From Candidatus Sungiibacteriota bacterium (GTDB taxonomy: Bacteria > Patescibacteriota > Minisyncoccia > Sungbacterales > HO2-52-23): DNA of 64,000 bases. The translations under genes were made by a program, and so were the position numbers. The stretch is taken from the NCBI GenBank assembly GCA_016432465.1, contig CP066690.1:122702-186701 (forward strand), in the 5' to 3' direction. This document shows, in pieces, positions 33,752 through 60,068 of this stretch (positions are counted from its first letter, which is position 1; the number at the start of each line of letters is the position of its first letter). The notes under the pieces were generated by a model, which saw only the letters and a program-made list of their open reading frames with translations, was not told the origin of the DNA and did not search any database.

Positions 33752-33768
33752 ATGAGATAGAACTAAAC

Positions 33769-34620: not shown

Positions 34621-34629
34621 ACCTTTAAA

Positions 34630-35982: not shown

Positions 35983-35990
35983 AACAAAAT

Positions 35991-40637: not shown

Positions 40638-42038
40638 TCAAGCTCGCTCCAGAGAAAGTAAAACTTGTGCCAACAGTTCTGTGGCTCTTCCGTCCTGCGG
40701 CCCCAAAAAGCGGGAACGCAGACATTCCCGCCCCTTCTCGTCCAGAGACGGGTTTTTAAGATACTTGCTAATTGTTCTTTCAAACTCTTTAGGGGAAGAT
40801 ACCGCCCGTACTCCTCCCGTTGTGATAAGATCTGTCCAATAAAAAGCCGTACCGTCATAAAAACGGGCAAAAGATTTCCAATACGGAACATCGGGCGCAG
40901 CATCAAAAGCAGTAACCACCATGGGTTTTTTAAAAACTGCGGCCTCAAGCAGAATGGCGCCTCCGGGTGTTATCAGCATCTCGCTGTAGCGCATGGCGTT
41001 TATAAAACTGTTTATGTTTCCCCGGTCTATGGTCGGGTCAGGATATTTGAGATTGGTGGTATTTACAAAATCAACCACCACCGAATCAAAACGACGCGAC
41101 CTTAACTCTTTTAGGGCTTCAGCCGCGCCGGCATAATAGGGTTGGGGCCTGAAGATCATAACCAAATCTTTGGGCAGGCGTCCGTTTTGGACCAATTTTC
41201 CAAAAAGCTCTACAAAAGCAAGATCGCGCCCCAGATCCCCAATGCCGCTATCGGCATAAAGGATACAGCGTTTTCGCGGGTCAATTCCGAGTGCCCTGCA
41301 AAACTCCTCGCGCGACGGCAGGGACTGATCTGTCTTAAACCAGTCAAAATAAGGAAATCCGGTGACATGAATTCTGTTTTTCGGAAAAAAGTTAAATCGT
41401 ACTGCCATGTCTTTTAAAAATTCATTCTGTAAAATCAGATGGTCGGGGTGAAAAAGCAAAAAAGAAGTCGGACCAAGGTTGGTCCACATACGTACCGAAG
41501 CGGCTGTTGTTGCGCCGTAACTTCGGGCCGCAAGAAGTATAGGAACATCAAAAGTCCATTCAGTAAGCGACGTTGCAAATACCAGATCTGGTTTTATCTC
41601 CTGAAAAAGAGGGGACAGAGATGAAGATACTGAAATCTTGGCAACCACCCGCCTGACAAGTCGCTGGGTGAGGCGTGAAGGAATAAATCCCACCAGGCGC
41701 CACAACAAAAGACGCGGTATAAGAAGAAACCAAGACTTGCCACGACGCACGCTGCGGTAAATCTGATGACGCACTGCTGCAAAATTAACCAAAACATTCT
41801 CGGAGACCAAAACGCAAATCCTAAATAAAAAAGAAGGGCGTCCTGTCCCCACCCGCACCCCCATAACTCTTACCCGTTCCCCTTCAAATTCTTCCTGATA
41901 TTGTTTTTCAAATCCTTTCTCAACCAGAAGCACCACCTTTACATTTCCGCTTGAGACAAGTTTTTCCAGAAGCCCGCTTCTTAAAAAATAACGCTGAATA
42001 AGCTTAGTGTTTTTTACGCAAATACAAATAGTCTTCAT
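40638..42038 (-). CDS. GT-B-like TagF/KpsC-family transferase, paralog 2
   Basis: Paralogous to 34630..35982, with a shared N-terminal layout and a C-terminal block ITPGGAILLEAAVFKKPMV. Confidence 0.35.
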   Translation of the reverse strand: MKTICICVKNTKLIQRYFLRSGLLEKLVSSGNVKVVLLVEKGFEKQYQEEFEGERVRVMGVRVGTGRPSFLFRICVLVSENVLVNFAAVRHQIYRSVRRGKSWFLLIPRLLLWRLVGFIPSRLTQRLVRRVVAKISVSSSLSPLFQEIKPDLVFATSLTEWTFDVPILLAARSYGATTAASVRMWTNLGPTSFLLFHPDHLILQNEFLKDMAVRFNFFPKNRIHVTGFPYFDWFKTDQSLPSREEFCRALGIDPRKRCILYADSGIGDLGRDLAFVELFGKLVQNGRLPKDLVMIFRPQPYYAGAAEALKELRSRRFDSVVVDFVNTTNLKYPDPTIDRGNINSFINAMRYSEMLITPGGAILLEAAVFKKPMVVTAFDAAPDVPYWKSFARFYDGTAFYWTDLITTGGVRAVSSPKEFERTISKYLKNPSLDEKGRECLRSRFLGPQDGRATELLAQVLLSLERA

Positions 42039-43408
42039 GAATACAGCTTCTTAAGCAAAATACGCGCGATTCTTTCCCCCACCCTTCCGTCATACGGCTC
42101 AAGAAATTGTTCTCGGACGCGTTCCCTCCCCTCAAAGTCCAGATGCGGATTTTTAAGATAAGATCTGATGGCATTTGCAAATTCCTCCGCAGTATCAGCC
42201 CGACGAAAACCGCCGGTTTCAAGCAACGCTTGCCAATGCGACCAATGGTCCAAAAACCGTCCTGCCGAAAACCAGTAGGGCGCGGGTCCGGCCTCAAAGC
42301 CCACTGATATGGCGGGTTTATCCAAAACAATACCGTCAATACCCAAAGTGGAGGCAACGGTCACCACCATTTCGCTGTGGAAAATAGAATTCATAAGATG
42401 CGCCGTCTCTTTCTCCCGCATCTCCCAAACATCAGCCGCTGACTTGGTAAAAGAACTGATATCAGGCACCACATAACGCAGTCCCTCTATTCTTTCCATA
42501 GAACCGGTGGATCCGGGATAAGGACGAAAGAGCATAATAAGATCTTGCGGAAGCTTTCCCGACTCTACCAGATTATTAAAAATACGGGCAATTTCTCCAT
42601 CGCGCGGAAACCAGAAATATTCCATAGCGCCAAAAAATATAACGCGTTTTTTGGGATCAATGCCCAGACGCGCCAAAAAATCCTGACGGCTATCAATTAA
42701 GTCCTTCCTTAAAAACCAGTCGTTTCTGGGGAATCCAACGCGGATTGTGCGTTGGTCAGGGATAAATTGATATTTTTGCGCGGTCTTGCCGGCAAAACGG
42801 CTGTGCACCAATAAAATATCCGGCACCACCCTCATCACACCGCTATTGGTAAAGTTATCCCAGCCGCGCGTAATACCAATGGTCTGAACCATCCGGCGTC
42901 TGGCTTCGCGCAAAATAGGAACATCCATCTGGGCAAACATGGCTACCGTGGAAAAAACTAAACTGGGATGGTAACGCTCAAAAAGCTGTCCGACACTCGG
43001 ATGCGGCGGCAAAAAGGTTTCGGCCGTGCGCAAAAACTTTTGGAAAATACGCGAGCGTCCGAGAAAAAACCAAAGACCGCGTTTTAGAAAAAAAGCAATA
43101 TGCCGCATCAATCCCTGCGTCGTTAAGTATTTACGCATCTGATTCAAGGTAACGGTACTGGTACGCAGAGCATTGAGGGCCAAAAATAGCATCAGCCGCT
43201 CAAGAGTAGAAAAAGGAATGGATGGAAGCGCCTCTACCAAGATATTGTCTCCGCTAAATTCTTTTCTGTATTCTTCGGCTTTAGACGGAGGCACAATAAG
43301 GACAATACGAAAATTACGTCCTGCCAAAAGCTTCCTCCAAAATTCGCCGCGCAGAAGATGATGCGCCACGCTGGCCTCTCCCACGGTAATAAAAATAGTC
43401 TTGGTCAT
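42035..43408 (-). CDS. GT-B-like TagF/KpsC-family transferase, paralog 3
   Basis: Paralogous to the two above (TVASTLGIDGIVLDKPAI). Confidence 0.35.
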   Translation of the reverse strand: MTKTIFITVGEASVAHHLLRGEFWRKLLAGRNFRIVLIVPPSKAEEYRKEFSGDNILVEALPSIPFSTLERLMLFLALNALRTSTVTLNQMRKYLTTQGLMRHIAFFLKRGLWFFLGRSRIFQKFLRTAETFLPPHPSVGQLFERYHPSLVFSTVAMFAQMDVPILREARRRMVQTIGITRGWDNFTNSGVMRVVPDILLVHSRFAGKTAQKYQFIPDQRTIRVGFPRNDWFLRKDLIDSRQDFLARLGIDPKKRVIFFGAMEYFWFPRDGEIARIFNNLVESGKLPQDLIMLFRPYPGSTGSMERIEGLRYVVPDISSFTKSAADVWEMREKETAHLMNSIFHSEMVVTVASTLGIDGIVLDKPAISVGFEAGPAPYWFSAGRFLDHWSHWQALLETGGFRRADTAEEFANAIRSYLKNPHLDFEGRERVREQFLEPYDGRVGERIARILLKKLYS

Positions 43409-45159
43409 TTTTTCTTCAAAAGATAGGGGCCCAAGACAAGATAGCGAAGCCCGGAATTATCAAAAACGTGCAGTGCGTCCTCCGGCGTATAAACTATGGG
43501 GTGGCCGTGAAGGTTAAAAGACGTATTGAGGATAATCCCTTCTCCGGTCAATCGCTCAAATTCAGAAATTATCCGAAAATAAGACGGGTTAGAATCTGAC
43601 GACACTTCCTGGGGTCGGCAAGTGTTATCGTAAGGATGAAGGGCCGCCGCAAGCTTATCCACCTTCCCCTCTTTTACGTCAAAAGTAAGAATCATGAAGG
43701 GCGCAGGAACGCATTTGGGATTTTCAACATAGCGATCAAGCTCAATACAGGACGGAGCAAAAGGCATCCAAAAATCCCGTGATTTTATCATGCGATTAAT
43801 TTCCTTAACGACCCCCCACTCGCGAGGATCCGCAAGAATAGAACGATTACCCAAAGCCCGCGCCCCAAATTCCATTTTTCCGTCAAAACGCGCGACTACA
43901 GCGCGGCCGGCAAGAAGCTCCGCAATTTTTCTCTCCACATTTTCCGGGCGTTCCCACTCTACGGCGTTTCGAAAAGCATAGGAGCGTATGGACTTCTCCA
44001 CCTCTTTATCCGAAAAATCTCCACCAAGATACAAATGCCGCAAGGGCTGCGGCACCTTGCCGGTCAAATTTTGATAAGCAAGATAAAGACCGCCAAAAAC
44101 ATTGGATTCGTCCCCGCAGGACGGGAATACAAAAAGCTTTTTCACCCCTTCAAGCTCCATTATTTTTTTATTGAGCTTGACGTTCATAAATAAACCCCCG
44201 GAAAGAGCAAGATTGCTGATCTTTAGGGTGCCCAGGATGTTATGAACCCACTCCGTCACAAATTCTTCCACAAAAAGCTGAAGACCGGCTGCAATGTGGT
44301 CAAAACGATAAAACTTAAGGTCGCGCGTAAGACGCGGCCCCAGTTTATACGTTGCCTCAATTCCCGGTGACCTGTGATAGGTCAAACCATCGTCGTTTAG
44401 CAGAAAAAATTTTTTAAAATAAGCGCAAAGCTCGCGGGCAGAGCGTGAATCCTGCGCATAGGGCGCCAAACCCATTACTTTATACTCATGCTCCAGCGGC
44501 ACCATGCCAAGATAATAGGTAATCAGGGCATAAAGGCGCGCAATGGAATCTTCCACGGGGATTAGGGCCAGACGCTTCAGCACTCCGCCCTCCAAAACAC
44601 TGACGCTGCCCGACAAATTGTCTCCGGCGCCGTCAGAAGTAATTACCACCAGCTTCTCCCCCAGACCCCATCCGTAAGCGGCTGATGCGGCATGGCACAG
44701 GTGATGATCAAAAAATTTAATTTTTGATCTAGAAACCCCTAGATCCAACAGGGGTTTCATCCGGCGCTCTAAAAACTCCGCCCTTTTCCTTTCCTGCAAA
44801 ATCCCAAAAACCGGAGAAGGAAGAAAGCCGACTAAGCTCTTTTGGGCTGTACGCAAAAAGGAAACAGGAGACAGTTTTCTTTCTTCAAAAAGATTTCTGT
44901 GTTTTTGCATCAGATACTCCACCCCTTGCCCCTTTTTCCACCCTCCGGTATTTAGCGCATCGGTGAATACAAAAATATCAACATCCCGGATATGGAGTTG
45001 GTGCCTTTGCAGGAGCTCCTGCAAAGCAAGCTCCGGAAAACCGGCTGTATTTTTTATCCGCGTAAGTCGCTCCTCTTGTATGGCAAACTTCACTTCGCCT
45101 TCTTCCATATAAGCAAGGGAGGCGTTGTGGCCGTCTTGTATGGCGACAATTTTAATCAT
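43405..45159 (-). CDS. Carbamoyltransferase (NodU/CmcH family)
   Basis: N-terminus IVAIQDGHNASLAY...EERLTR and overall 584-aa layout typical of O-carbamoyltransferases. Confidence 0.7.
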   Translation of the reverse strand: MIKIVAIQDGHNASLAYMEEGEVKFAIQEERLTRIKNTAGFPELALQELLQRHQLHIRDVDIFVFTDALNTGGWKKGQGVEYLMQKHRNLFEERKLSPVSFLRTAQKSLVGFLPSPVFGILQERKRAEFLERRMKPLLDLGVSRSKIKFFDHHLCHAASAAYGWGLGEKLVVITSDGAGDNLSGSVSVLEGGVLKRLALIPVEDSIARLYALITYYLGMVPLEHEYKVMGLAPYAQDSRSARELCAYFKKFFLLNDDGLTYHRSPGIEATYKLGPRLTRDLKFYRFDHIAAGLQLFVEEFVTEWVHNILGTLKISNLALSGGLFMNVKLNKKIMELEGVKKLFVFPSCGDESNVFGGLYLAYQNLTGKVPQPLRHLYLGGDFSDKEVEKSIRSYAFRNAVEWERPENVERKIAELLAGRAVVARFDGKMEFGARALGNRSILADPREWGVVKEINRMIKSRDFWMPFAPSCIELDRYVENPKCVPAPFMILTFDVKEGKVDKLAAALHPYDNTCRPQEVSSDSNPSYFRIISEFERLTGEGIILNTSFNLHGHPIVYTPEDALHVFDNSGLRYLVLGPYLLKKK

Positions 45160-48701: not shown

Positions 48702-50405
48702 CTATTTTTTTGCAAGGTACGGACCAATAGCTAAATAATCAACGTCTGTCTTTTTGAAAAACAACACAGCTTCTTCCGGAGTATTTACAATTGGCTCGCC
48801 TTTGACGTTTAGGGAGGTATTAAGCACAACCGGCACGCCGGTCTTTTGGAAAAAATACTCAATCATTTTTGCGTACAGAGGATTTGTTGCGTGAAAAACT
48901 TCTTGTGGCCGGACAGTATTATCTACGTGACATACTGCCGTAATTTTTTCCCGCCATTCGGGCTTTACGGAAAAAGACATAACCATATAAGGAGATGGCA
49001 TATAATGTTCCAGAAACTCCTCCCCGTGTCCCTCCAAAAATGAAGGACAAAAAGGACGGAAGGGTTCACGGAATTTTACTTTGGCGTTAATTATATCCTT
49101 CATCTGGGCGGTCCTCGGGTCGGCGAGCACGGAACGAGAACCCAAGGCGCGGGGACCAAATTCCATCCTGCCCTGAAACCAAGCCACAATTTTCTTCTGC
49201 GACAAAAGGTTGACAACCTCATCCGCAATATCGTCTGATTTTTTATAATTAAGACCGCTTCTGGCAAGGGACTTTTCTATTTCGGCTTGAGAATATTCTG
49301 GCCCAAGATAAAGATGCCGCAACGGCTCCGGATGCCTGCCTGTTTTTTGATAATAAAGAAGCCAAGCCGCTCCAAAAACATTACCCATATCTCCGGCTGC
49401 GGGCTGTATCCACATATTTTTTACCAGCCCAGATTCCCAGATGGCTTTATTCATTTTGACGTTTAGAGCAACGCCGCCGGCCAGACATAAACTTTCAGCT
49501 TTTAGCTTATAGCTTTTAGCTGTCAGCAGAAGCTCCCGTACGTAATAAAGCGTCGCTTTTTCCAGACGATCTTGCAAAGTCGCGGCAATATCGGTGTTGG
49601 GCTGCGGCGGCGTATCCTCCTGATACTCTCTGTTGATATTCGGAAATCGGGCCTCCAAGCTGCGGATGGAAAAAGGATAAAGCGAATAGCGGGTGTTAAT
49701 TCTCACGCCCCTATCGCCCACTGAAATTACGTCATCCATCTCGTAGACAGCTTTTCCGTAGGGCGCAAGCCCCATTACTTTGTATTCGCCATCATTTATA
49801 CGAAATCCCAAAAAATCGGTGATGGAGCCGTAAAGATAGCCGAGGGAATTAAAAATGCCGTAGCGCTTAAGCAGTTTAAGACCTCCGCCCTTCCCGTACC
49901 ACATAGAGATGGACGTCGCCTCGCCCTTGCCATCCATACATAAAATCGCTGCCTCATCAAACCCGGAACCATAATAGGCCGAAGCGGCATGGCACAAATG
50001 GTGGTCAAAAGAATAAACTTTCCGCGCTCTAACCCCCATAACTTCAAAAATCCGCTTATACGAGGCTAAGCCTCGTAGTGCCGAGAATAAACCCTGTACC
50101 TGTACCTTCACTAAAGCGAACATATAGCGAAGTTCGGTAAAATTCCGTGGTGGACGCATTAAAAAATACCAGCCCACCTTAAGAAACGTGGAGAAGTTTT
50201 TGGCACGCGCAAAAACAATATAATCCACCTCGTCCAGGGTTAAATTACGCGTGGAAAGACAGTAGCGAATGGATTTTTCCGGGAAAAAATCGGCGGCATG
50301 CTTCACCCGATTAAATCTCTCTTCCTCCACCGCCGCAATGATTTTCCCGTCCTCCAAAAGACAGGCAGCAGGGTCGTGTCCGGTTTTAAAACTTAGTATA
50401 CGCAT
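48702..50405 (-). CDS. Carbamoyltransferase (NodU/CmcH family), second paralog
   Basis: N-terminus ILSFKTGHDPAACLL...EEERFNR; 567 aa. Confidence 0.7.
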   Translation of the reverse strand: MRILSFKTGHDPAACLLEDGKIIAAVEEERFNRVKHAADFFPEKSIRYCLSTRNLTLDEVDYIVFARAKNFSTFLKVGWYFLMRPPRNFTELRYMFALVKVQVQGLFSALRGLASYKRIFEVMGVRARKVYSFDHHLCHAASAYYGSGFDEAAILCMDGKGEATSISMWYGKGGGLKLLKRYGIFNSLGYLYGSITDFLGFRINDGEYKVMGLAPYGKAVYEMDDVISVGDRGVRINTRYSLYPFSIRSLEARFPNINREYQEDTPPQPNTDIAATLQDRLEKATLYYVRELLLTAKSYKLKAESLCLAGGVALNVKMNKAIWESGLVKNMWIQPAAGDMGNVFGAAWLLYYQKTGRHPEPLRHLYLGPEYSQAEIEKSLARSGLNYKKSDDIADEVVNLLSQKKIVAWFQGRMEFGPRALGSRSVLADPRTAQMKDIINAKVKFREPFRPFCPSFLEGHGEEFLEHYMPSPYMVMSFSVKPEWREKITAVCHVDNTVRPQEVFHATNPLYAKMIEYFFQKTGVPVVLNTSLNVKGEPIVNTPEEAVLFFKKTDVDYLAIGPYLAKK

Positions 50406-51423
50406 TGATTATTTTCTGAATAGTATTTTCTAAACCATGCTTTTCTTCCACCAACCTGCGCAGTGTCAAATTGGGACGAGGCTCATCCGCAAGTATTTTT
50501 ATGTGCTCGGCCAGAAACTCCGGACTTCTGGTCTCAAGGAAATACGTCTCTGGCAGCAGAGATTTGAAAGCTTCGTTGGCCGTAATAATCGTAAGACCAG
50601 AGGACATAGCTTCCAGCACCGATTTGTCCATAGACCCCGTGGTGGACATAGAAATAAAAATATCGTGATCAAGATAAGCCGAAGGAACCTCGTTGTATGG
50701 TATAGAACCGTGAAAGCTAACGTAGTGTTCTAGTTGTTTTTCTTTTACCATCTTTTTAAGCGACTCCAAATAGTCATTATCACGCGGCATAAGCGGACCG
50801 CCAACAATAGAAAGAGTCCAAGCTCTCTGCCATGTATTTTTTAAAACTTCACAGGCGCGAATGGCAGTCTCAATATCTTTAACCGGTGAAATCCGGCCCA
50901 AAATCAAAAGTCGTATTCCAGAACTGGAAACTGGGAATTGGGAATTGGGAATTGGCCGGAACGTTCCCGTATCAATCGCGTGTCCGGTGTACAAGACCCT
51001 TAGAGAGGGCAGACGAAAACTTAACTCCGAAGCAGTAAAAATCCAATCCACCATACGTTCCGCCCACCTTAGAGTCGGGGTAACGCTTTTATGCACATAC
51101 CATAGCCCGCTCGGCTTTTTTAGTGACACAAGAAATGGGGCCGCCGCCATTACGTATTCTGGAATCATATGAAAAAAAACCGCATCGGTACGTGCGTAGT
51201 GATACGAGAAAAGCTCCCAAAATTTCCAAAGTTTTGCAATCCTTGAGTTTCTTTTCCCGAAGGTAAAGACTGAAACGTTTTTGGGGAGTGAGTGTACTCC
51301 TTCTTGCAGGGCAATCACTCGTACCCCATCCGTGAACTTGGCAAACTCTTCCAGCCATCGGTGAAAAAATCCGAGATTCTCGTCATTTTTATCTACTTTT
51401 TGAGTTACCACCAGTAGCCTCAT
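50386..51423 (-). CDS. Glycosyltransferase family 4 (GT-B)
   Basis: 345 aa with C-terminal GT4 motifs. Contains the heptanucleotide repeat at 50926-50955. Confidence 0.65.
   Translation of the reverse strand: MRLLVVTQKVDKNDENLGFFHRWLEEFAKFTDGVRVIALQEGVHSLPKNVSVFTFGKRNSRIAKLWKFWELFSYHYARTDAVFFHMIPEYVMAAAPFLVSLKKPSGLWYVHKSVTPTLRWAERMVDWIFTASELSFRLPSLRVLYTGHAIDTGTFRPIPNSQFPVSSSGIRLLILGRISPVKDIETAIRACEVLKNTWQRAWTLSIVGGPLMPRDNDYLESLKKMVKEKQLEHYVSFHGSIPYNEVPSAYLDHDIFISMSTTGSMDKSVLEAMSSGLTIITANEAFKSLLPETYFLETRSPEFLAEHIKILADEPRPNLTLRRLVEEKHGLENTIQKIINAYTKF
50926..50955. repeat. Heptanucleotide tandem repeat (GGGAATT)x3 plus one degenerate unit, inside the GT4 CDS
   Basis: ggaaact gggaatt gggaatt gggaatt gg. 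The unit length of 7 is not a multiple of 3. Confidence 0.5.
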
Positions 51424-51439
51424 GCCGATATTATACGAA

Positions 51440-51470
51440 TTTCTCTCTTAAATTAAAATGGCGGCACTCA
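51440..51470 (-). terminator. Terminator candidate
   Basis: Hairpin GCGGCactcataaccGCCGC with an A/T tract. Confidence 0.4.
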
Positions 51471-51511
51471 TAACCGCCGCGGGTCCAAAAAATACCCAAT
51501 GAAGAAGCCTT

Positions 51512-52189
51512 TTAGTATTCCACACTCTCTTTGCCGGTCATTAAATCAACGGAGTGAACGTGCGGAAGTGCGGAAAGAGAAGAAACAACCCTTTCAGGAC
51601 CCAGGCCCTCGGCAAGTTCAACCGCCAAAGAATATTCCATCTCCTCACCGGAAGACTTTATATGTAACACATGGTAAGTAACACCCAACGATCGGAAAAG
51701 TTCATTAAGCTTTATGGGATCAAACGCGCTGCCGGCCTGAAGCATGATAAGGTATCCTGTCCGAAAGGCCGCACCCAGACGCTTACGATGAACCACTAAA
51801 AGTGCTATGGCAATAAAAGTAAGGGCAATGCCGGCAATAGCATAATTGCCGGTGCCAATGGCCACTCCTTCTACCAGAGCGAAAAAAACATAAGCTACGT
51901 CTTTAGTATCTTTTACAATAGTGCGAAATCTTATCATGGAAAAAGCACCCAGCAGAGCAAAAGCACCGATCAAATTCTCTTGTACCACCATCATAACTAC
52001 CGAGCCCAGAGTACAAACCATCATCAGGGTCACTACAAAAGAACGCGAATAAGAAAGTCCGCGGTGGGTTTTACGATATACCCCAACAATCACCGCTGCG
52101 GCTGCAAAAGACAATAAAATATTCAGCACAATTACGGCGGCATTAAGTTCAGTGGAGGTTAAGTTGTAGAAATTTTGCATCGAAGGCAT
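51512..52189 (-). CDS. DUF4956-like integral membrane protein
   Basis: About 225 aa with 4-5 TM helices. This type typically accompanies VTC-domain and CotH genes. Confidence 0.5.
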   Translation of the reverse strand: MPSMQNFYNLTSTELNAAVIVLNILLSFAAAAVIVGVYRKTHRGLSYSRSFVVTLMMVCTLGSVVMMVVQENLIGAFALLGAFSMIRFRTIVKDTKDVAYVFFALVEGVAIGTGNYAIAGIALTFIAIALLVVHRKRLGAAFRTGYLIMLQAGSAFDPIKLNELFRSLGVTYHVLHIKSSGEEMEYSLAVELAEGLGPERVVSSLSALPHVHSVDLMTGKESVEY

Positions 52190-52206
52190 AATTAATATCT
52201 GAAAAC

Positions 52207-52935
52207 TTATCTTGGCATGGGGTGGAACGATCGTAACGCCTCCATGGCGCGGCCATATTTGGAAATACTAATTCGTTCCAGCTCCAAAAATTTAATAAGA
52301 GTTCCGAACCAAGCAGGAAGATTCTTAACAAATTTCACCTCCATAATAACCATATTTTGCTCAATCGGAACCCACGAGAAAGGATACCATAAATCGGGTT
52401 TTGCGCAAGTCTGAAGCCCGGAATCAAAAGTAATACGGAGGAGCTCACCAGCATAAAATCCTACATAAGGGCGGCGCTGATACTTAACAAGGAGCAACGG
52501 TTTACGGCACCCCATGATTATTTTGGAAAGTATGGCCTCGCCTTCCTGCCGGTATTCGTGACCGGACAAAGACTGAAAAAAAGAAGGAGCTCCTGCCTTA
52601 AGTAACTTCTCAAAATCAGAGCGTCCCAAACGGATCCTGGTTTTTCTCGTCAGGGCATCAAAACGCTCTTTGGCTTCGAGCCAAATTTCATTCGTGTTCT
52701 CGGTGATCCGGGGCGCATAAATCCTGGCCCGAACCTTAGTACGATGTAGAAACCCACCACTTTTATCGTAGTAATCGCTCTTGGGCGGGGTGTCAAAATA
52801 AAGACTCGTGACAGTATACTCCCCTGCCTGCGCATTAGTATCAGGCTTCAATCCTACAGACTGAATAAAACGCTCCGCGCGCCGCGCGGCTACGGGATCA
52901 ATAAGGTATTTAAACTCAAAACGATACTTGGTCAT
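52207..52935 (-). CDS. VTC-domain (polyphosphate-polymerase-like / CYTH-like) protein
   Basis: YRFEFKYLI...TSLYFDT...KVRARIY pattern characteristic of bacterial VTC domain proteins. Confidence 0.55.
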   Translation of the reverse strand: MTKYRFEFKYLIDPVAARRAERFIQSVGLKPDTNAQAGEYTVTSLYFDTPPKSDYYDKSGGFLHRTKVRARIYAPRITENTNEIWLEAKERFDALTRKTRIRLGRSDFEKLLKAGAPSFFQSLSGHEYRQEGEAILSKIIMGCRKPLLLVKYQRRPYVGFYAGELLRITFDSGLQTCAKPDLWYPFSWVPIEQNMVIMEVKFVKNLPAWFGTLIKFLELERISISKYGRAMEALRSFHPMPR

Positions 52936-55208
52936 GGCCTTAAAGGAGTAGCAACCTCAATTTGAGAGCGCCCATCGCTTTTAATATCTTCCTTATTTTT
53001 TAGAAAAGTCGGATTTATCACCAGCGCGTAACCGCCGCCAAATTCATGTTTTTTTTGATAGGCGGAGATGGCAACATCGTCCTCCTTAAAAATATTGGAA
53101 AAAATACGGGCGCGGCTTGAGTCTTTAACCGCTACTCCCACGGAACAGGAAGTAATTACGTTTTTGATAATAATCGGCCGCGAGGCCTCACCCACACTAA
53201 TTCCTTTATCAGCGCAGCCAAGAATAATATTTCTTTGAATCAAAACCTGCGAAAAACTTAGATCAATAGCATCCCCGCCGGTCTCTTTTGTGCCCAAGGG
53301 GGAGGCAAAGGTGTTATCTTCCACAATGCTAGTCGCATCCACGGCGTCAAAGTCAAGAGCATCGGAATTTGTCTTGAAAAAGGTGGAGCGACGTATTATG
53401 GCCCGGCCGTATTTTACATTAATTGCATCGTCATCATGCGAGTCAGAAAAAATACTTTGAGAAACCTCAAGATCACTATCGTGTACTGCCAACATACCCG
53501 TGGCTCTGATACCGTTTATCTCAACACCTGATCCTCCGGAAACTTGAGCAAACTCAACCCTGCTGGGAGTTTTACTATTATTAAGTATCAAAATAGAGCC
53601 CCATGGTTTTTGCGCATCCAGAGCCGCAACAATGACTGGTGCGCCGCTGCTACCCACGATCTCCACCGGACCGTAGGAAACTAAGGATACCCCTTCACCC
53701 AGCAGTAGCGTTGTTCCCGCATTTATACGAAGTGTAACGCCCGCAGGGATGATCGTAGTCTCGGTAATAATTGTAGTTCCGGTGCCAAGTGAAACCGTCT
53801 TTTCATCAAGCGCATAAAACCGGGGATTATAGGCCAAAAACTCTATCAGGCTTCGGCTGATTTCTGGAAAACGTGCAAATTCGGTAGGCATAACTAAACT
53901 GCCGGTTTTTTGCAAAAAATACGGCGGTGACACTCGCCCCAAAAAAGCCGTGGCTTTTTGAAAATTACTTTCCGTAAGATCGCGTAACCTGCTTATCTCG
54001 CTCAAATACTTCAGATTGCTGTGAAATTTTAGAGAGTCGCTCAAAAATTCAGGTTTCATGCGTCTTGCTAAACTATCATAAAAGGCAAGATCGTCGCGCA
54101 GGTTATCTTCGTTAAGATAGCTCTTTAGAACCTCGTCGCGCTCTTTACGAAATTCCGGGATGGAAAAGACGCGGCTGGCAAGTTTCTCCGCTGCCTCGTC
54201 CCGCAGATACTCACCCATTTCCATACCCATGTCAAAAGGTACTGTCTCAAATTTTCCGGTGGCGGTATTAAAAATAACAATCAGGTTTGCTGCCTCCCAC
54301 TGATGAGCGCTGTCAGCCAGCGCCCGCAGCGCATGCCAAGCATAAAACTTAGGTAAATCAATAATATGCGGTATGAGTTTAGTGAACATGGTATCATCGG
54401 TCTTTTCAATAATCTCAACTAAAGCTTCCAGTTCCGGAAACGACTTTGTGTTATTTTGGGTATAACTCTTCCAGCGGCGCAATCCTTCCCTGGAAAAAAG
54501 CGGGGCAGTATCTTCAAAAAGGCCGGGTTTTCCGTCATCAACCGCAAGAATATGGGAAGTATCGGGAAGGCCGGAACGCGAAAGCCAACGATTGGACCAC
54601 TGCTCCCAAGCCATATAAACGCCTGCATCCCAACCGTTTATTTTCAGCCGCACAAACCAAATATCCGGCACGTTAAGTCCCAATTTACGAGCACGGTAGG
54701 CGTTTAAAAGTTCTATAAAATAGAGCCGATCATAGGGAATCACCAAATTCAGACCCTTCATGCCTTGAAAACGAGACTCTTTAGAAAAATTTATCCGCCA
54801 GGACTTCTGCGCTGCCGCCCAATGGTTATTTTTAAAACCCCTATACCTTAGTTCTACCCGCTCCCTAAAATCTCCGGCAGCAAAGTCGGCTTTAACCCTT
54901 ACCCGATTATCATCAAGAAGCGGCGCCCCAAAAGGGTCAGGAAGACCGGCGTTTAAGGTGGCAAGATCCTGCTTTTTTATAACAAGCTTGTAAACAGGGA
55001 GCCGGGTTTTGTAGAAAAAATACGGGGAAAACACTAAATCAGGAAGTTTGCGCACCGACCTGTAGGTTGGCACCAATTGCTGAAACATCGGGCTTTGTAT
55101 CAAACGATAACGAAGTGATTCTGATTTTATAACAATAAGTCCGGCCACAAATATAAGGACAAGAAGGAGGACTGATATTTTTTGATTTTTATAAACCGAC
55201 GCAAACAT
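52932..55208 (-). CDS. CotH-family atypical protein kinase fused to a C-terminal right-handed beta-helix (PbH1 repeat) domain; N-terminal signal/anchor
   Basis: N-terminal TM segment. CotH-like core across residues 100-450. The C-terminus has PbH1-like repeats (NIILGCADKGISVG, NVITSCSVGVAVKDSS). Confidence 0.55.
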   Translation of the reverse strand: MFASVYKNQKISVLLLVLIFVAGLIVIKSESLRYRLIQSPMFQQLVPTYRSVRKLPDLVFSPYFFYKTRLPVYKLVIKKQDLATLNAGLPDPFGAPLLDDNRVRVKADFAAGDFRERVELRYRGFKNNHWAAAQKSWRINFSKESRFQGMKGLNLVIPYDRLYFIELLNAYRARKLGLNVPDIWFVRLKINGWDAGVYMAWEQWSNRWLSRSGLPDTSHILAVDDGKPGLFEDTAPLFSREGLRRWKSYTQNNTKSFPELEALVEIIEKTDDTMFTKLIPHIIDLPKFYAWHALRALADSAHQWEAANLIVIFNTATGKFETVPFDMGMEMGEYLRDEAAEKLASRVFSIPEFRKERDEVLKSYLNEDNLRDDLAFYDSLARRMKPEFLSDSLKFHSNLKYLSEISRLRDLTESNFQKATAFLGRVSPPYFLQKTGSLVMPTEFARFPEISRSLIEFLAYNPRFYALDEKTVSLGTGTTIITETTIIPAGVTLRINAGTTLLLGEGVSLVSYGPVEIVGSSGAPVIVAALDAQKPWGSILILNNSKTPSRVEFAQVSGGSGVEINGIRATGMLAVHDSDLEVSQSIFSDSHDDDAINVKYGRAIIRRSTFFKTNSDALDFDAVDATSIVEDNTFASPLGTKETGGDAIDLSFSQVLIQRNIILGCADKGISVGEASRPIIIKNVITSCSVGVAVKDSSRARIFSNIFKEDDVAISAYQKKHEFGGGYALVINPTFLKNKEDIKSDGRSQIEVATPLRP

Positions 55209-55229: not shown

Positions 55230-58200
55230 TTATCCTTCACTGGCGCAAACGCGGAGCACCTGTTGATATGCCGCAACATAAGATTCCCAGCCCCGATGAG
55301 GAAGTTGCTTTATCTTCTCTTCGGCCGCATGCGCCAAGTAACTACGTAATTCTTTATCCTGATAAAGTCGAAGGAGTGCCTTGAGAAATTGTTTTTTGTC
55401 ACCCACTGGCACCACTAATCCATTCTCTCCATTGTGCACCACCTCCCCCGCCAAACCTACGTCAGTCATAAGAATGGGTAGAGAAGCGGCCATGGCTTCT
55501 ATAATAACCCGCCCCCACCCCTCATAATTTGATGATAAAACAAAGAGATCAAAAGATTTATAAAACGACGGTAGATCATCACGCCACGGCTCAATAAAAA
55601 CGTTTTTGTCTAATCCGTAATTTCTAATTTGTAATCTGTAGTTGTCTCTATCGGGCCCGTCTCCCACCAACACTAAAAGCGTCTTGGGGTACATCTTCGT
55701 CAAATTCCGCATCAACTCAATAAGCATGGAAAAGTTTTTTTCTTTATCTACGAAACGCCCCACACTTACTATTTTAAATTCGTAGTCCCAAAAACGCTCC
55801 TCGGTTTTAGGATCTCTATCGGAATTAAGAAATTTAGAAATGTCGGTAAAGATAGGCAAAACCGTAATTTTATCTTCGGTGGCAAGTCCTGCCTCCTTTA
55901 AAGAACTTTTAATACGTTCCGAAACTACTCTAATACGGCTTGCTCTGGGTATCAAGAATTTAACCATGAGATATCTAGTAAATTCTTTTAAGGAGGCCTT
56001 CCTGTACCACGGGCTTAAAATATCAGTATGCACTTGAAGCTGAAAGGGCTGCCCAAAACGCCTGCTAAGAAGCCACGCCACCATCCCCTCTTCAAACGGA
56101 TTTTCAGAGCTTATCACCCAACGGCCGCGTCGCTGGAGCAGCCGTGCTCCTTCTTTATAAAGAAGGTACCACGACAAAAGCTTACTGGAGTGAATCGGAC
56201 GTAAAACCAAAGTACCCTCCTTCATAGCAGGCAGCTTATGATGGCTGCGGCAAAGAACATGAAATGAAGAAAATGGTTCGGCGTAAAATTGCGCCCTTTC
56301 CCGAAGCGGAGAATTATGTTGAAAAATACTCTCATCCGTGCCGATGGTTAAAATATTTAACCCCGCGGGCGGCCCGATAATCTTTTTAAAAAGTGAGATC
56401 CAGTCCTCTGCAACTTCTTTCCACAGTCTCACTGTCAAGACTGACTTAATGGTCCCTACCGTATCTTTCTTGGCCAACATCACTAACTTTTGGGCAATAT
56501 CGTCTTCAGACAACGGATTTACCAGTACTGCGCTATCGCCCACGTATTCTTTTAAGCCGGACTCCTGCGTCATAACAAATGGTGTCCCCAGTGCCCAAGC
56601 TTCAGCGATAACATTGGGCCCAACATCAGAAAAAGATGGCAGTAAAAATACGGACGCCTCCTGGATTTTTTTAAGAAGTGGGTCATGCGGTACTGGCGTT
56701 AAAAATTTGACTCTGGAAATTTTGTTTTCCTTTACAAACTCCTGCAACCTTTCTTTTTCAGGACCATCACCTACTAAATGAAGTTCATAATCACGCAGGC
56801 CCGATTTGGTAAAAGCGCGGATCAGACGGTAAAGATTCTTCAAATAAAGCATCCTTCCTGCCCATAGGATAACGGGTTTCCGGGTTAATCCTGCGCTGGC
56901 TCCCATTTGCTCCTGTACATTTTGGACAATAGCCGTCTTATTTTTGTCTAAACCATAGGCCTGCTCCACCATTTTCCTGCGCCAATCAGAAGAAAATACC
57001 AACGCATCGGCCCTGTGCATAACCCAGCTACTAATAAATTTTATAACACGCTCTTTCCAGGACAGAGGCATAGGAAGCGTATAAAACTGCGGAAGGGTAA
57101 CATCATTTCGGGTCCTCTCCACAAAAGATTCCCACAGAAAATCGCCTTCCAATCTAATGACCAGCGGCTTTTTATACAAAAAGGATATCAGGGCTGCCGG
57201 CGCTCCCACGCTGAAATAGTCCAAGGAAAAAATTAAATCAGCGTTTTTGGCTCGCTTAACGAGCGAAAGCAAATAAAAAAGATGACGAATCAGGGTTGGG
57301 TATTTTAAAAAGCGGCCAAAAGAAACTACCGAGACGCCGAGGCCTTGCGAGCGAAACTCACGGGAAAGATTCTCGGCATAAAGCGCCGGGCCTCCAAGTT
57401 GAGGAGGGTAAAGAGGTGTAGCAATCAGAAGACGGGTACGAGCTATGTTTTGTGAAAATACGTTTTGATATTTTTGGGCTATGACGTCCCATAAAAAGCG
57501 CTCCTTTATCATTCGTCTTCCATCCTCCACCATTTTTTGCGCTAAAATTTTTTCATCCAAAAGAAACCGGATTTTGGCCGCAAGATCAAGATGATCATCC
57601 ACTTTGACAAAAAGACCGGTTGCTCCGTCTTTGATAATATCCGTTATGCCGCCTACAGCCGTACCAATTATGGGAAGACCCGCGGCCAACGCCTCTATGA
57701 ACGAGATGCCCATGCCTTCGGAACGAGAGGGACGGACAAAAACGTCGGCTTCATGAAGATATTCGGGTATCTTCTCATGCGGGATTTCACCGAAAAATTT
57801 AATATCAGCTTGTAGCTTGCCCGCTCCGCCGGAGCTTGAGCGAGGCGAGTAGCTTGTCCCTAGGCTCTTTGAGCCGGGATCCCGGCCACTTTGTGGCCTA
57901 GGGATAGCTTGTAGCTCAAGATTTTTACGCTCTGGACCGTCGCCGATAATCCAACATTGAACATTAGGAATGGCTTTTTTCACTTCTGCCATTGCCCGAA
58001 TCAAAATATCAATTCCGTTTTTTGGCACCAACCGTGAGGTCGTAATGATGGTAGAAGCAGATTTACGCAAATAGCTATGCGGATTTGCGCGGATATCATT
58101 TCTAAATTTCTCTGCGTCAACGCCGTTATGAATGATCTCTCCCGGTCCCCTATATCCATAACTTCTTGCCAGATTCAAAAGATAAGTAGAGATTGCCGTT

Positions 58201-58664
58201 ACGTAATCGGCCTGCCAAAGAATAAAACGAAAGGCCGCATTTATCGCGCCAAACCGTCCAGAAGCAAGCCGAGCATCCCCTTCCCCGTATTGAATGTTCA
58301 AAATAAAAGGAATTCGGGGATGAAATAACTTATAAATTGCCGCCGTAACAGAGGCATGCGAAATATCCACCCCCACTACCGCACTTGGACACGGCGTGTC
58401 CAAGTTGGACGTTAGGCACCAGAACGGCAGAAGGTATTTATCAAACCGGGAGCCGAATCCGGCTCTTATAATTTTTACGCCCTGATAGGAATCCTCACGC
58501 GGTAAGTCTTTTTTGAATCTGGAAGTTACAATATAAAAATCGAAGCGGTCTTTTAACCGCCTGCAAACCTCCGCTATGGCAATCTCCGCTCCACCAATAA
58601 ACGGGTGGTAGGAGGTAGTAAATACAAAAACTTTTGGCTTCATTGCATTAAAGACAGAAATCAT
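55230..58664 (-). CDS. Giant multidomain glycosyltransferase: three tandem GT4 (GT-B) modules in one 1144-aa polypeptide
   Basis: Three successive GT4-like units, each with its own N-terminal sugar-acceptor half and C-terminal E-x7-E region. The first unit carries an in-frame palindromic insertion at 57806-57918. Confidence 0.65.
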   Translation of the reverse strand: MISVFNAMKPKVFVFTTSYHPFIGGAEIAIAEVCRRLKDRFDFYIVTSRFKKDLPREDSYQGVKIIRAGFGSRFDKYLLPFWCLTSNLDTPCPSAVVGVDISHASVTAAIYKLFHPRIPFILNIQYGEGDARLASGRFGAINAAFRFILWQADYVTAISTYLLNLARSYGYRGPGEIIHNGVDAEKFRNDIRANPHSYLRKSASTIITTSRLVPKNGIDILIRAMAEVKKAIPNVQCWIIGDGPERKNLELQAIPRPQSGRDPGSKSLGTSYSPRSSSGGAGKLQADIKFFGEIPHEKIPEYLHEADVFVRPSRSEGMGISFIEALAAGLPIIGTAVGGITDIIKDGATGLFVKVDDHLDLAAKIRFLLDEKILAQKMVEDGRRMIKERFLWDVIAQKYQNVFSQNIARTRLLIATPLYPPQLGGPALYAENLSREFRSQGLGVSVVSFGRFLKYPTLIRHLFYLLSLVKRAKNADLIFSLDYFSVGAPAALISFLYKKPLVIRLEGDFLWESFVERTRNDVTLPQFYTLPMPLSWKERVIKFISSWVMHRADALVFSSDWRRKMVEQAYGLDKNKTAIVQNVQEQMGASAGLTRKPVILWAGRMLYLKNLYRLIRAFTKSGLRDYELHLVGDGPEKERLQEFVKENKISRVKFLTPVPHDPLLKKIQEASVFLLPSFSDVGPNVIAEAWALGTPFVMTQESGLKEYVGDSAVLVNPLSEDDIAQKLVMLAKKDTVGTIKSVLTVRLWKEVAEDWISLFKKIIGPPAGLNILTIGTDESIFQHNSPLRERAQFYAEPFSSFHVLCRSHHKLPAMKEGTLVLRPIHSSKLLSWYLLYKEGARLLQRRGRWVISSENPFEEGMVAWLLSRRFGQPFQLQVHTDILSPWYRKASLKEFTRYLMVKFLIPRASRIRVVSERIKSSLKEAGLATEDKITVLPIFTDISKFLNSDRDPKTEERFWDYEFKIVSVGRFVDKEKNFSMLIELMRNLTKMYPKTLLVLVGDGPDRDNYRLQIRNYGLDKNVFIEPWRDDLPSFYKSFDLFVLSSNYEGWGRVIIEAMAASLPILMTDVGLAGEVVHNGENGLVVPVGDKKQFLKALLRLYQDKELRSYLAHAAEEKIKQLPHRGWESYVAAYQQVLRVCASEG
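57806..57918. mobile_element. About 100-bp GC-rich palindromic element inserted in frame in the first GT4 module, flanked by 11-bp direct repeats
   Basis: Direct repeats AGCTTGTAGCT at 57807-57817 and 57907-57917. Nested palindromes CCCTAGGC..GCCGGGATCCCGGC..GCCTAGGG and GCTCCGccGGAGC. Encodes an extra Ser/Gly/Pro-rich segment of about 35 aa (IPRPQSGRDPGSKSLGTSYSPRSSSGGAG) between conserved GT4 blocks. Confidence 0.5.
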
Positions 58665-58694: not shown

Positions 58695-60068
58695 TCACCC
58701 GCCACGAATCCGGCTTTTTATCATAATAAATGCCCCGGCCGCAAGAACGCCCACACCCAGCGCTGCGAACAAAAATGCAAAACTGGCAGGGCGGTCGGAC
58801 CGGACGAGGGCCGCACTTTCCGAAGCAGGGTCAGACCCCGTATTTTTTCCCACACTCTCTACTGGGGAAACAACAACAGCTTCTGGTCTAGAAGAAATTG
58901 TGGGCTCCTGACCAGTAACGGCTTTTGCCCATGTCACCGCAACAATACCGTTGGGGTAACGAAGATTTACCAAACTAACTCCATAGTGGAAAAGGCCGGT
59001 GGTACGATTGGAAAACGCGACGGTTGAGCGTCCGCTAATTTTTGTTTGGGAAGGAATAATAAAATTCTGACTGATACCGTCATCAATAATCCAGGCGCCA
59101 ATATCAAGATCAAAGTCATCCGGATTGGTGAATTCAATAAATCCTGCCTCACCCTCTACAACGCGTAAAATCTTTACTTTGTTTGGGATGACATTGACCC
59201 TAACGTAATCAGAAACCGCATGGGTACCTGAAGAAACATGAAGACCCACAAGATACACCCCCGAAGTATTGAAAGTATGGGTAAGCGAGCGGCCCTCGGC
59301 GGTTGCGCCATCACCAAAATTCCACCAAAATCTTGCATTCCCCAACTCACTGCCATCCAGATATTCAGCATAGCCGGGAAAATCTACAATTGCTCCGGCA
59401 ATCACATTTTTATCTTCTCCGGCATATACTCTAAAGGGCGGCGGGGCAATATTCGATATCTGCGTACTTGATGGAGACGACGATTGTTGTTTAGGTTGCT
59501 CCGACATGCCCGAACCTTGATTAGCAGCACGAGGAGTTGCTTTGGCCGTAATCCATGATGGGCCGCCTCTTTGCATTGTATCTTTAGTCGTGTTATCGCC
59601 TGCCGGCCAACCCGAAGAGGCGTTTATTTCGTCAACAGTTTCTCCGCTAGAATTTTTGAGAAATATGTGCTCTCCAAGATTGGAAAGCGCATTATTTTTA
59701 AAGGGGTATATAATATCGGCCGGAGTGCCAGCTACAACCTCATCGCTGCCCCGCTCCAGCAAAAAATATCCTCCGGCCGGAATGGAACCAGATAGCAAAA
59801 AATCAGGCATAGTGTCCGAAGCCACAATTTTCCAACCCCCTAGGGACAGTGCCGAGTCGGTAGGATTATGGAGCTCAACCCACTCGTTATTGGCAGCGGC
59901 CTGTGCGGACTCGCCTTCTTTGGGAAGCGTCCCCATCCAGGCAATTTCGTTAATTAAAATACCCGCTCCCGAAACAGAAAGCGGTATAAAAATACTTATC
60001 AAAATAATTGACACCCGTGGTCCAGCCTTCATTAAAACATCTGTAGCAAAAACCGCTGGAAACGTCAA
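58695..60068 (-). CDS. Cell-surface protein with two lamin-tail domains (LTD), a PKD-like domain and a C-terminal membrane anchor
   Basis: N-terminal signal/TM. LTD signatures ILINEIAW...NEWVELHN and VKILRVVEGE...EFTNPDD. PKD-like WWNFGDGATAEGRSLTHTF. C-terminal hydrophobic helix then RIRGG. Confidence 0.5.
   Translation of the reverse strand: MTFPAVFATDVLMKAGPRVSIILISIFIPLSVSGAGILINEIAWMGTLPKEGESAQAAANNEWVELHNPTDSALSLGGWKIVASDTMPDFLLSGSIPAGGYFLLERGSDEVVAGTPADIIYPFKNNALSNLGEHIFLKNSSGETVDEINASSGWPAGDNTTKDTMQRGGPSWITAKATPRAANQGSGMSEQPKQQSSSPSSTQISNIAPPPFRVYAGEDKNVIAGAIVDFPGYAEYLDGSELGNARFWWNFGDGATAEGRSLTHTFNTSGVYLVGLHVSSGTHAVSDYVRVNVIPNKVKILRVVEGEAGFIEFTNPDDFDLDIGAWIIDDGISQNFIIPSQTKISGRSTVAFSNRTTGLFHYGVSLVNLRYPNGIVAVTWAKAVTGQEPTISSRPEAVVVSPVESVGKNTGSDPASESAALVRSDRPASFAFLFAALGVGVLAAGAFIMIKSRIRGG

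Follow-up and report, generated by a model that had tools for sequence, protein, structure and literature searches.

Organization of the CotH, VTC and DUF4956 genes

A stretch of 64,000 nt from the genome of Candidatus Sungiibacteriota bacterium (contig CP066690.1), a member of the candidate phyla radiation (CPR, Patescibacteria), was analyzed in this study and is referred to as the window; coordinates are counted from its first letter. On the minus strand it carries three consecutive genes, here called the trio, for a membrane-anchored CotH kinase-like protein fused to a right-handed beta-helix, a soluble VTC-domain protein and a DUF4956 membrane protein. Comparison with other genomes shows that the VTC and DUF4956 genes form an invariant core, and that the outer partner of this core varies. 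A first-pass annotation had placed three consecutive minus-strand genes at 51512-55208, and all three open reading frames (ORFs) were found there:

52932-55208, minus strand: gene 1, CotH and right-handed beta-helix fusion protein, 758 aa, membrane-anchored (ORF, Pfam)
52207-52935, minus strand: gene 2, VTC-domain protein, 242 aa, soluble (ORF, Pfam VTC over its full length)
51512-52189, minus strand: gene 3, DUF4956 membrane protein, MgtC-like, 225 aa (Pfam DUF4956)

The domain assignments of that annotation stood when the proteins were scored with Pfam hidden Markov models (HMMs), all of them above threshold. Gene 1 matches CotH (PF08757) over residues 120-384 (1.2e-19, 71.5 bits, cut-off 23.8), and over residues ~570-721 both Beta_helix (4.3e-11, 43 bits, cut-off 25.9) and NosD (4.3e-10, 39.8 bits, cut-off 23.6); the NCBIfam para_beta_helix repeat TIGR03804 is barely above its cut-off (20.7 versus 19.45). 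Gene 2 matches VTC at positions 2-234 of the 235 in the profile (1.4e-27, 97 bits, cut-off 23). Gene 3 matches DUF4956 (PF16316; 3.6e-13, 50 bits, cut-off 30.6), and since its score against MgtC (PF02308) is below threshold (22 bits, cut-off 31.4) the protein belongs to DUF4956. An NCBI entry from Candidatus Sungiibacteriota bacterium, named 'CotH kinase family protein', has the same sequence as the gene 1 product (100% identity). Hydropathy profiles gave one N-terminal hydrophobic segment in the CotH protein (residues ~11-28), none in the VTC protein and several in the DUF4956 protein, so that the N-terminal anchor proposed earlier for the 758-aa protein is confirmed by hydropathy and its fusion to a beta-helix by Pfam.

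CotH and VTC share 4 nt (ATGA) where the two genes overlap, and 17 nt separate VTC from DUF4956. The three genes are arranged like an operon and are probably co-translated as a conserved unit. A promoter and terminator scan of the region was uninformative except for one hairpin 3' of DUF4956:

51461-51480, minus strand: terminator-like hairpin in the 88-nt gap 3' of DUF4956 (weak evidence)

The number of hairpins in the region is not above shuffled expectation, and only the position of this one is therefore suggestive. Nearly all ORFs of at least 150 aa in the 64-kb window lie on the minus strand with short gaps, and adjacency within the window alone thus proves little.

An invariant VTC-DUF4956 core with alternative outer partners

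Ten homologues of the fusion protein (35-59% identity) have an identical architecture. In three relatives on long contigs the order CotH-beta-helix, VTC, DUF4956 is kept while the flanking glycan genes differ, and no Pel genes were found beside the trio in the flanks of these three. The VTC alignment had no stretch conserved enough to seed a wider scan, and the DUF4956 alignment was used instead on one genome per species. A total of 352 contig stretches were matched and 80 loci were kept, whose ORFs were scored with HMMs from our own alignments and spot-checked against Pfam. As the loci were seeded on DUF4956, the following co-occurrence counts are conditioned on it:

42 of 80 loci: VTC and the CotH-beta-helix fusion (14 of them also with a second CotH lacking the beta-helix)
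2 of 80 loci: VTC and a partial beta-helix cut by the contig end
2 of 80 loci: VTC and stand-alone CotH only
28 of 80 loci: VTC, with no CotH or beta-helix match
6 of 80 loci: DUF4956 alone (three of the six cut close to the gene)

In 74 of the 80 loci, from CPR and Firmicutes alike, the gene directly upstream of DUF4956 is VTC (median gap 15 nt, n = 75), and in most of the 42 CPR loci the fusion gene immediately precedes VTC (median gap 23 nt, n = 37). The recurrence of the triad in bacteria, which the first-pass annotation had asserted, is thus borne out by the same order in 42 of the 80 DUF4956-seeded loci. Two of its emphases have to be revised. The fusion is not particular to this locus, as CPR lineages normally have the trio in this form and a Chloroflexota protein apparently shows it as well; and the unit is not the triad, as VTC and DUF4956 are invariant and CotH is one of several alternative outer partners. 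This core with interchangeable partners is new in the present analysis. Put generally, a cytoplasmic enzyme is combined with a membrane protein and, in most cases, with an extracytoplasmic protein that contains a beta-helix.

An iterated search started with Bacillus cereus CotH (5JD9) gave no CotH within 8 kb in the loci of Firmicutes, among them Listeria, Lachnospiraceae and Erysipelotrichaceae. A second partner family was found immediately after DUF4956 in 13 loci without CotH, two of them labelled Saccharibacteria, where the gene encodes a beta-helix protein of the Cthe_2159 family (PF14262). These are loci L058-L062, L067, L076, L077 and L079-L083 in our numbering, with the partner gene at, for example, L059:8571-10247 and L060:8666-10219. 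Most of these partners start with a lipobox or lipoprotein-type sequence or with a signal-anchor. Proteins of the Cthe_2159 family are beta-helix proteins that bind cellulose and polygalacturonic acid. A common origin of the Cthe_2159 and the CotH-fused beta-helices was considered and rejected (hhalign probability 0.5%). The pair stands without a CotH or beta-helix partner in Listeria (L064, L066 and L068-L074), and CPR loci without CotH are still found among GT2 glycosyltransferase, PMT-type and methyltransferase genes.

The three genes might also be unrelated neighbours in a long same-strand array, their adjacency being meaningless, and the strand bias and short gaps of the window would be in keeping with this. 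However, order and spacing are conserved in dozens of species of several CPR classes with differing neighbours; these synteny data refute chance adjacency in practice, and we give it next to no credence.

Two individual loci deserve mention. Recalling the mgtC-mgtB linkage, the pair in one Listeria locus (L068) has a P-type cation ATPase gene nearby, along with genes for a Crp-type regulator and a beta-lactamase-family protein. In a Ryanbacteria locus an extra CotH without beta-helix and a DUF4956 gene, with no VTC, are found ~5 kb upstream of a full trio (L001:1153-3224). In the fourteen other loci with a second, stand-alone CotH, this gene adjoins the fusion gene.

The VTC protein

A single-sequence search of the window VTC protein against the PDB gave nothing meaningful and a profile search was required, in which the profile of 38 VTC homologues matched the catalytic domain of yeast Vtc4 (3G3Q) at 1.3e-17. 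In the electron cryo-microscopy (cryo-EM) study of yeast VTC, the triphosphate ligands are K200, R264, R266, K281, R361, K458, S457 and Y359, the Mn ligand is E426, and of these residues K458 alone is missing from the non-catalytic Vtc2 and Vtc3. All nine catalytic residues are identical in the window protein (K9, R69, R71, K89, Y152, R154, E199, S225 and K226) and invariant in the 38 homologues, including K226, which corresponds to Vtc4 K458. According to Pfam and hydropathy the protein is a VTC domain alone, with no SPX domain and no fused three-helix membrane domain. Judged by these residues, the window VTC protein has the full catalytic equipment of a polyphosphate polymerase and is a predicted polymerase; we infer the activity itself by analogy with Vtc4.

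The triphosphate-tunnel fold (the CYTH/TTM superfamily) supports several chemistries, and the VTC protein might be a tripolyphosphatase, a nucleotide triphosphatase or a cyclase, with a product or substrate that the ACT-like domain of DUF4956 senses as a signal to control the outer enzyme. Such a role would agree with the usual binding of small ligands by ACT domains and with the lack, in the bacterial protein, of the SPX and membrane domains of Vtc4. On the other hand, the Vtc4-specific residues are all invariant, including the Ser-Lys pair of which the Lys is lost in Vtc2 and Vtc3, and the isolated central domain of Vtc4 suffices to make polyphosphate, as far as the work of Hothorn et al. 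(2009) is quoted in the cryo-EM study. We consider another chemistry quite unlikely.

The DUF4956 membrane protein

The AlphaFold2 (AF2) model of the DUF4956 protein (predicted local distance difference test score, pLDDT, 81) consists of five helices followed by a beta-alpha-beta-beta-alpha-beta domain:

51785-52141, minus strand: five-helix transmembrane domain, residues ~17-135 (hydropathy, AF2 helices)
51536-51757, minus strand: ACT-like cytoplasmic C-terminal domain, residues ~145-218 (Foldseek)

The top Foldseek match of the C-terminal domain in the PDB is the C-terminal domain of Mycobacterium tuberculosis MgtC (2LQJ; target template-modelling score, TM, 0.62; root-mean-square deviation, rmsd, 3.1), and ACT domains rank next. 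The basic loops YRKTHR, RFRTIVKDTKD and HRKR, read by the positive-inside rule, predict a topology with the N-terminus outside and the C-terminus, with the ACT-like domain, inside. The invariant residues are mostly polar or charged (N23, H42, S46, N72, R87, R89, T90, K93, D97, T113 and Y116) and lie within helices or at helix ends. A homologue search gave 375 homologues, and most among those listed carry PF16316. A homologue with 100% identity (P0134, 222 aa) begins at Met4 (52181-52189), and the start codon is therefore uncertain by three residues. At the other end the protein closes with Glu-Tyr (51512-51520), which could be a docking tail; among 37 sequences E224 never varies and Y225 is conserved in at least 90%.

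Both MgtC/SapB and the window DUF4956 protein combine a polytopic N-terminal membrane domain with a cytoplasmic ACT-like domain. To our knowledge, MgtC does not pair with a polymerase. The likeness, in the membrane domain by the sub-threshold Pfam match and in the C-terminal fold, raises the question of whether VTC and DUF4956 are an internal module of phosphate or energy homeostasis. VTC would then make or hydrolyse cytoplasmic polyphosphate, and the MgtC-like protein would regulate VTC, ATP synthase or phosphate sensing through its ACT domain. The CotH-beta-helix protein would be a separate surface enzyme, merely co-regulated as envelope synthesis consumes phosphate. MgtC is described in the literature as acting on ATP synthase and PhoR, the pair occurs without a CotH or beta-helix partner in Listeria and in some CPR loci, and a P-type cation ATPase and a Crp-type regulator are nearby in Listeria, all of which would suit a homeostatic role. 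It is harder to reconcile with the overlapping or nearly abutting extracytoplasmic partner kept across dozens of species, with the second and unrelated family of secreted partners in the same slot, and with the envelope glycan genes around the CPR pair even where CotH is missing. In yeast, moreover, cytoplasmic accumulation of polyphosphate is toxic, hence its export-coupled synthesis (cryo-EM study). We regard a purely homeostatic module as somewhat unlikely.

The CotH kinase-like domain and its anchor

Two features precede the beta-helix in the fusion protein:

55125-55178, minus strand: N-terminal signal-anchor, residues ~11-28 (Kyte-Doolittle maximum 2.76)
54033-54890, minus strand: CotH kinase-like domain, residues ~107-392 (phmmer, profile search, Foldseek)

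A strong N-terminal hydrophobic segment is present in 90 of 98 gene-called members of the CotH-beta-helix family. The flank on the N-terminal side of the anchor carries a charge of +3.0 and that on the C-terminal side +0.66, the former being more positive in 75 of the 98. Across the family this bias indicates an N-in, C-out orientation with the catalytic domains facing outward, and supports the extracytoplasmic location proposed by the first-pass annotation. A motif YRSxRKLPDxxFxP (55020-55065, residues 49-63), in which K54 and P62 are invariant, lies before the kinase domain just outside the anchor, and would sit beside the outer face of DUF4956.

The AF2 model of the 758-aa protein has a pLDDT of 85.6 and a predicted TM score (pTM) of 0.84. 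The kinase-like domain matches B. cereus CotH (5JD9) at 1.2e-11 with phmmer and 1.2e-20 in a profile search, and by Foldseek its model matches CotH 5JDA (E 4.5e-16, target TM 0.79, rmsd 3.6). The identities of the catalytic residues were taken from PMC7821199 and from alignment; Bacillus subtilis CotH is inactivated by D228Q or D251A (PMC7821199). The window stretch QWEAANLIVIFNTATGKFETVPFD aligns without gaps to a 24-residue stretch of B. cereus CotH. In this alignment B. subtilis D251 is kept as D326 and the loop Asn as N308, the two aligning to the PWD and HN motifs of 5JD9, and D228 corresponds to Gln303, the same substitution as in the kinase-dead D228Q mutant. The profile alignment is shifted by one position and puts His302 at the D228 site. 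Among 43 divergent fusions, His302 is kept in 39, Asn308 in 42 and Asp326 in 40; position 303 is Q, V or S, and position 305, Glu in the window, is acidic in 28. The residues of the CotH domain kept in at least 90% of the 43 are R121, R123, G124, S136, D160, E202, H302, N308 and D326.

The catalytic residues, which the first-pass annotation had singled out for checking, thus stand in part: the Mg-binding D326 and N308 are kept, whereas the canonical D228 is replaced by Gln303 at a position that is not conserved, and kinase activity of the window protein therefore cannot be assumed. In the AF2 model no part of the kinase domain has lower confidence than the catalytic loop, so that a shifted catalytic base is possible. 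The conservation pattern points to a CotH domain that is under selection as an enzyme but is without the canonical catalytic base; its base may be a shifted acid or His302, or the domain may carry out a different transfer reaction. Compared with Bacillus CotH (5JD9/5JDA), the Pfam family and the fold are the same, and the Mg-binding Asp (D251, here D326) and N308 are shared. Bacillus CotH, which has neither a membrane anchor nor a beta-helix, has coat proteins as its targets, whereas the window CotH is predicted to be extracytoplasmic, and Asp228 of the former has no conserved counterpart in the latter, where His302 is conserved instead.

The beta-helix domain

The C-terminal part of the fusion protein is made up of one domain:

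52950-53816, minus strand: right-handed parallel beta-helix, residues ~465-753 (Pfam, NCBIfam, AF2)

The AF2 model of this segment contains strands only, with pLDDT above 90. Foldseek matched it to PL6 alginate lyases, the epimerase AlgG, the adhesin PfbA, phage tailspikes and NosD, at sequence identities of only 9-15%. The fold is shared with PL6 lyases, AlgG, PfbA, NosD and Cthe_2159, and most of the beta-helix proteins matched by fold act on or bind polyanionic polysaccharides. The carbohydrate-binding or lyase-like nature first assigned to the domain holds at the level of the fold only; no lyase or hydrolase catalytic motif was identified in the window beta-helix. A stacked set of mostly Asp and Lys residues is present in at least 90% of the 43 fusions (D593, D594, D616, D619, D621, D646, D649, D667, K668, E674, K695, D696, Y717, K719 and K720), which suits an active site, or a face for cation-dependent binding, better than a spacer. 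Mean identity among the 43 is 0.396 in the beta-helix versus 0.346 in the kinase domain.

An exhaustive search with the beta-helix alone (E<=1e-30) yielded ~550 clusters at 50% identity. Among the best 149 matches, an N-terminal CotH was found in 113 of the 118 proteins of at least 650 aa, and the beta-helix subfamily is almost always fused to CotH. That the usual form of the trio is a fusion with a beta-helix subfamily found almost only together with CotH is a new observation. A Chloroflexota protein (P0012) appears to be the same fusion from inspection of its C-terminal sequence by eye, while Pfam finds CotH only.

These data bear on a reading in which the CotH domain is inactive or re-purposed, and the protein serves chiefly as an adhesin at the surface or as a polysaccharide-degrading or -remodelling enzyme. 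The beta-helix would then be the working part, binding or cutting, for example, the glycan of the host cell that a CPR bacterium lives on, or a polymer of the cell's own wall. The Gln303 in place of the catalytic Asp, the higher conservation of the beta-helix than of the kinase domain, and its invariant Asp/Lys-rich face on a fold that matches lyases, an epimerase, an adhesin and tailspikes would all fit. The core is accompanied by CotH-less beta-helix proteins in other phyla, and Mucorales CotH homologues are studied as virulence factors, not as kinases. Nevertheless, the conservation of N308, D326, R121, R123, D160, E202 and H302 in at least 90% of the 43 fusions argues for retained catalysis, the absence of an identified lyase or hydrolase motif speaks against a cutting enzyme, and the fixed link to a cytoplasmic polyphosphate polymerase would be left unexplained. 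An adhesin or remodelling enzyme with an inert CotH domain is improbable in our judgement.

Comparison with Pel loci

The trio was reported in 2019-2020 as an accessory gene set, with cotH, 'PPP', DUF4956 plus DUF4832, beside Gram-positive Pel operons, and the authors of a 2025 revisit could not find the arrangement outside Pel loci. The trio has no established function in the literature, as had been noted at first pass, and is given there only as an accessory set beside Gram-positive Pel loci. These accessory genes are known from Streptococcus, Clostridia and Bifidobacterium, with SIR_1594, SIR_1593 and SIR_1592 in Streptococcus intermedius. The three families and their order are the same as in the window, and both sets are tied to exopolysaccharide or glycan genes. 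In the Pel set, too, CotH is predicted to be secreted and DUF4956 is described as an MgtC-type membrane domain with an intracellular ACT domain. In contrast, the Pel accessory genes are contiguous with pelDEA(DA)FG, whereas the window has neither Pel genes nor DUF4832 among the genes scanned at 25972-63982, the stretch free of Pel genes reaching from ~11 kb on one side to 9 kb on the other, at the window end; CotH is fused at its C-terminus to a beta-helix in the window and to FN3 in the Pel set; and the window host is a CPR bacterium with a teichoic-acid-type-looking island, while the Pel set belongs to Gram-positives. New, too, is the abundance of the trio in CPR; neither the window nor the flanks examined in the three relatives showed Pel genes adjoining it. 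A link between CotH and CPR was not found in the 15 best-ranked papers, nor did the literature searched contain a test of a bacterial VTC-domain protein. In Clostridium perfringens, NELoc-2 holds VTC genes and a CotH gene in one cluster.

A proposed function in export-coupled polyphosphate synthesis

In the reading that we prefer, polyphosphate would be made inside the cell, passed through or at DUF4956, and used or bound outside to modify a phosphate-rich surface glycan; we put its probability at roughly 35%. Soluble VTC at the cytoplasmic face would polymerize the gamma-phosphate of ATP into polyphosphate in its triphosphate tunnel, like yeast Vtc4. DUF4956 would be the obligate membrane partner, with a conserved basic cytoplasmic mouth (R87, R89 and K93) and a cytoplasmic ACT-like regulatory domain. 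It would hold VTC in place and let the growing chain, or its phosphoryl groups, through to the other side, and so resemble the yeast VTC channel in function without being homologous to it. The outward-facing CotH-beta-helix protein would receive a phosphate source where ATP is unavailable, and would phosphorylate a cell-surface polymer or attach or trim a phosphate polymer on it, the acceptor probably being the teichoic-acid-like glycan made by the surrounding island described below. Fam20B and POMK, of the wider secretory-kinase group to which CotH was linked, phosphorylate sugars, and a glycan acceptor therefore has precedent.

The docking of VTC and the export steps are proposed because of the analogy with yeast, where the cryo-EM study found synthesis coupled to membrane transit through a pore with rings of basic residues. 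The catalytic Pfam domain and the nine residues are the same in both systems, and each pairs a cytoplasmic polymerase, predicted in the window, with a membrane component. Yeast VTC is a complex of Vtc4, Vtc3 or Vtc2, and Vtc1, and Vtc4 contains SPX and membrane domains, whereas the window VTC is a separate soluble protein without SPX; and the target compartment, the vacuole in yeast, would be the cell exterior here.

Domain identities, the intact Vtc4 catalytic residues, the topology and the tight cross-phylum synteny carry this proposal, and export through DUF4956 and the use of polyphosphate by CotH or the beta-helix are proposed by analogy. The VTC protein has no membrane segment, and the protein that constantly accompanies it spans the membrane several times and has polar and basic residues that are invariant. 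The third partner, when present, is extracytoplasmic, as indicated by the N-in, C-out bias of the CotH proteins and the secretion-type N-termini of the Cthe_2159 proteins, and both the CotH and the beta-helix domain have strongly conserved, enzyme-like polar constellations. The only genetic data, from S. intermedius, favour the proposal in part: deletion of the DUF4956 homologue raises the amount of Pel and lowers aggregation, and deletion of the CotH homologue lowers both. The phosphate-containing surface polymer suggested by the TagF-like enzymes, cytidylyltransferases and ABC exporter of the island is in line with it as well. The extracytoplasmic phosphorylation, or polyphosphate-related modification, suggested by the first-pass annotation is a reasonable inference at the level of prediction.

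Several points weigh against the proposal. VTC and DUF4956 occur without an outer neighbour in Listeria and some CPR loci, so that the core can work alone. In S. intermedius, deletion of the VTC homologue SIR_1593 has no reported phenotype, unlike deletion of its two neighbours, which weakens a strictly linear pathway. The five-helix, MgtC-like DUF4956 is unrelated to the three-helix membrane domain of yeast VTC, and MgtC-family proteins are known as regulators, not channels. The canonical catalytic Asp of CotH is not conserved and about one third of the family has no acidic residue in the loop. The anchor flanks of the window CotH protein itself are neutral in balance (+2 on each side) and uninformative alone. 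The conserved face of the beta-helix is acidic, and binding of polyphosphate would thus need bridging cations. Biochemical data on bacterial VTC or DUF4956 proteins were not found in the literature searched.

Bacterial polyphosphate synthesis is generally attributed to PPK1 and PPK2 (PMC8776046). A VTC polymerase with intact residues, always beside a membrane protein, would be a new bacterial route to polyphosphate, if the proposal is true. We hold it doubtful, at present, that there is a third, VTC-type bacterial route built for export, with the polymer as donor or attached group for an outer CotH-like enzyme or beta-helix; that the CotH-like enzyme has a His-containing catalytic loop and targets cell-surface glycans is offered with the same reserve. 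The combination of intact polymerase residues with a catalytic Asp of CotH that is not kept is new. If the proposal holds, VTC-DUF4956 may supply cell-surface or extracellular polyphosphate, and would solve the problem of extracellular phosphorylation where there is no ATP, answering how a CotH-family enzyme works outside the cell. It may also explain the altered Pel-dependent aggregation on deletion of the homologues in pathogenic Streptococcus. With 352 DUF4956-matched stretches, the system is common in CPR, whose envelope biology is little understood and for which contact with the host surface is essential, and export-coupled polyphosphate synthesis in bacteria becomes a directly testable idea.

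The surrounding glycan island

The trio had been seen at first pass as embedded in a glycan island, and its flanks are indeed rich in glycosyltransferase, carbamoyltransferase and TagF-like genes:

55230-58664, minus strand: glycosyltransferase protein with three GT4 modules, 1144 aa, a single ORF 21 nt upstream of CotH (Pfam)
50386-51423, minus strand: GT1/GT4-type glycosyltransferase downstream of the trio (Pfam)
58695-60068: surface protein with lamin-tail (LTD) and PKD domains, upstream of the GT4 fusion
33017-37784 and 40638-43408: weak TagF-like glycerophosphotransferases (three paralogues), cytidylyltransferases (two) and an ABC exporter
43405-45159 and 48702-50405: pair of carbamoyltransferase paralogues, no more than 7 kb apart

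Pfam also identified GT2, another GT1 and several methyltransferases in the flanks. The TagF-like enzymes, cytidylyltransferases and ABC exporter suggest a teichoic-acid-like, phosphate-containing surface polymer in this CPR genome, and the paired carbamoyltransferases imply carbamoylated sugars in a predicted surface glycan. Two other identities for the locus were rejected: it is not a Pel locus, as neither pelDEA(DA)FG-type genes nor DUF4832 matched any gene scanned from 25972 to 63982, and not an anti-phage defence system, as PADLOC gave no match for the three trio proteins or the GT4 fusion.

The same triple-GT4 gene precedes the trio in L002, the locus of the 59%-identical relative. A GT1 gene is also found 3' of the trio, on the same strand in L002 and on the opposite strand in L001. 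The block of PG-binding, TPR, LTD-PKD, triple-GT4, trio and GT1 genes is common to the window and L002. The GC skew is negative throughout the window (1-64000), and no tRNA gene is present in its 64 kb.

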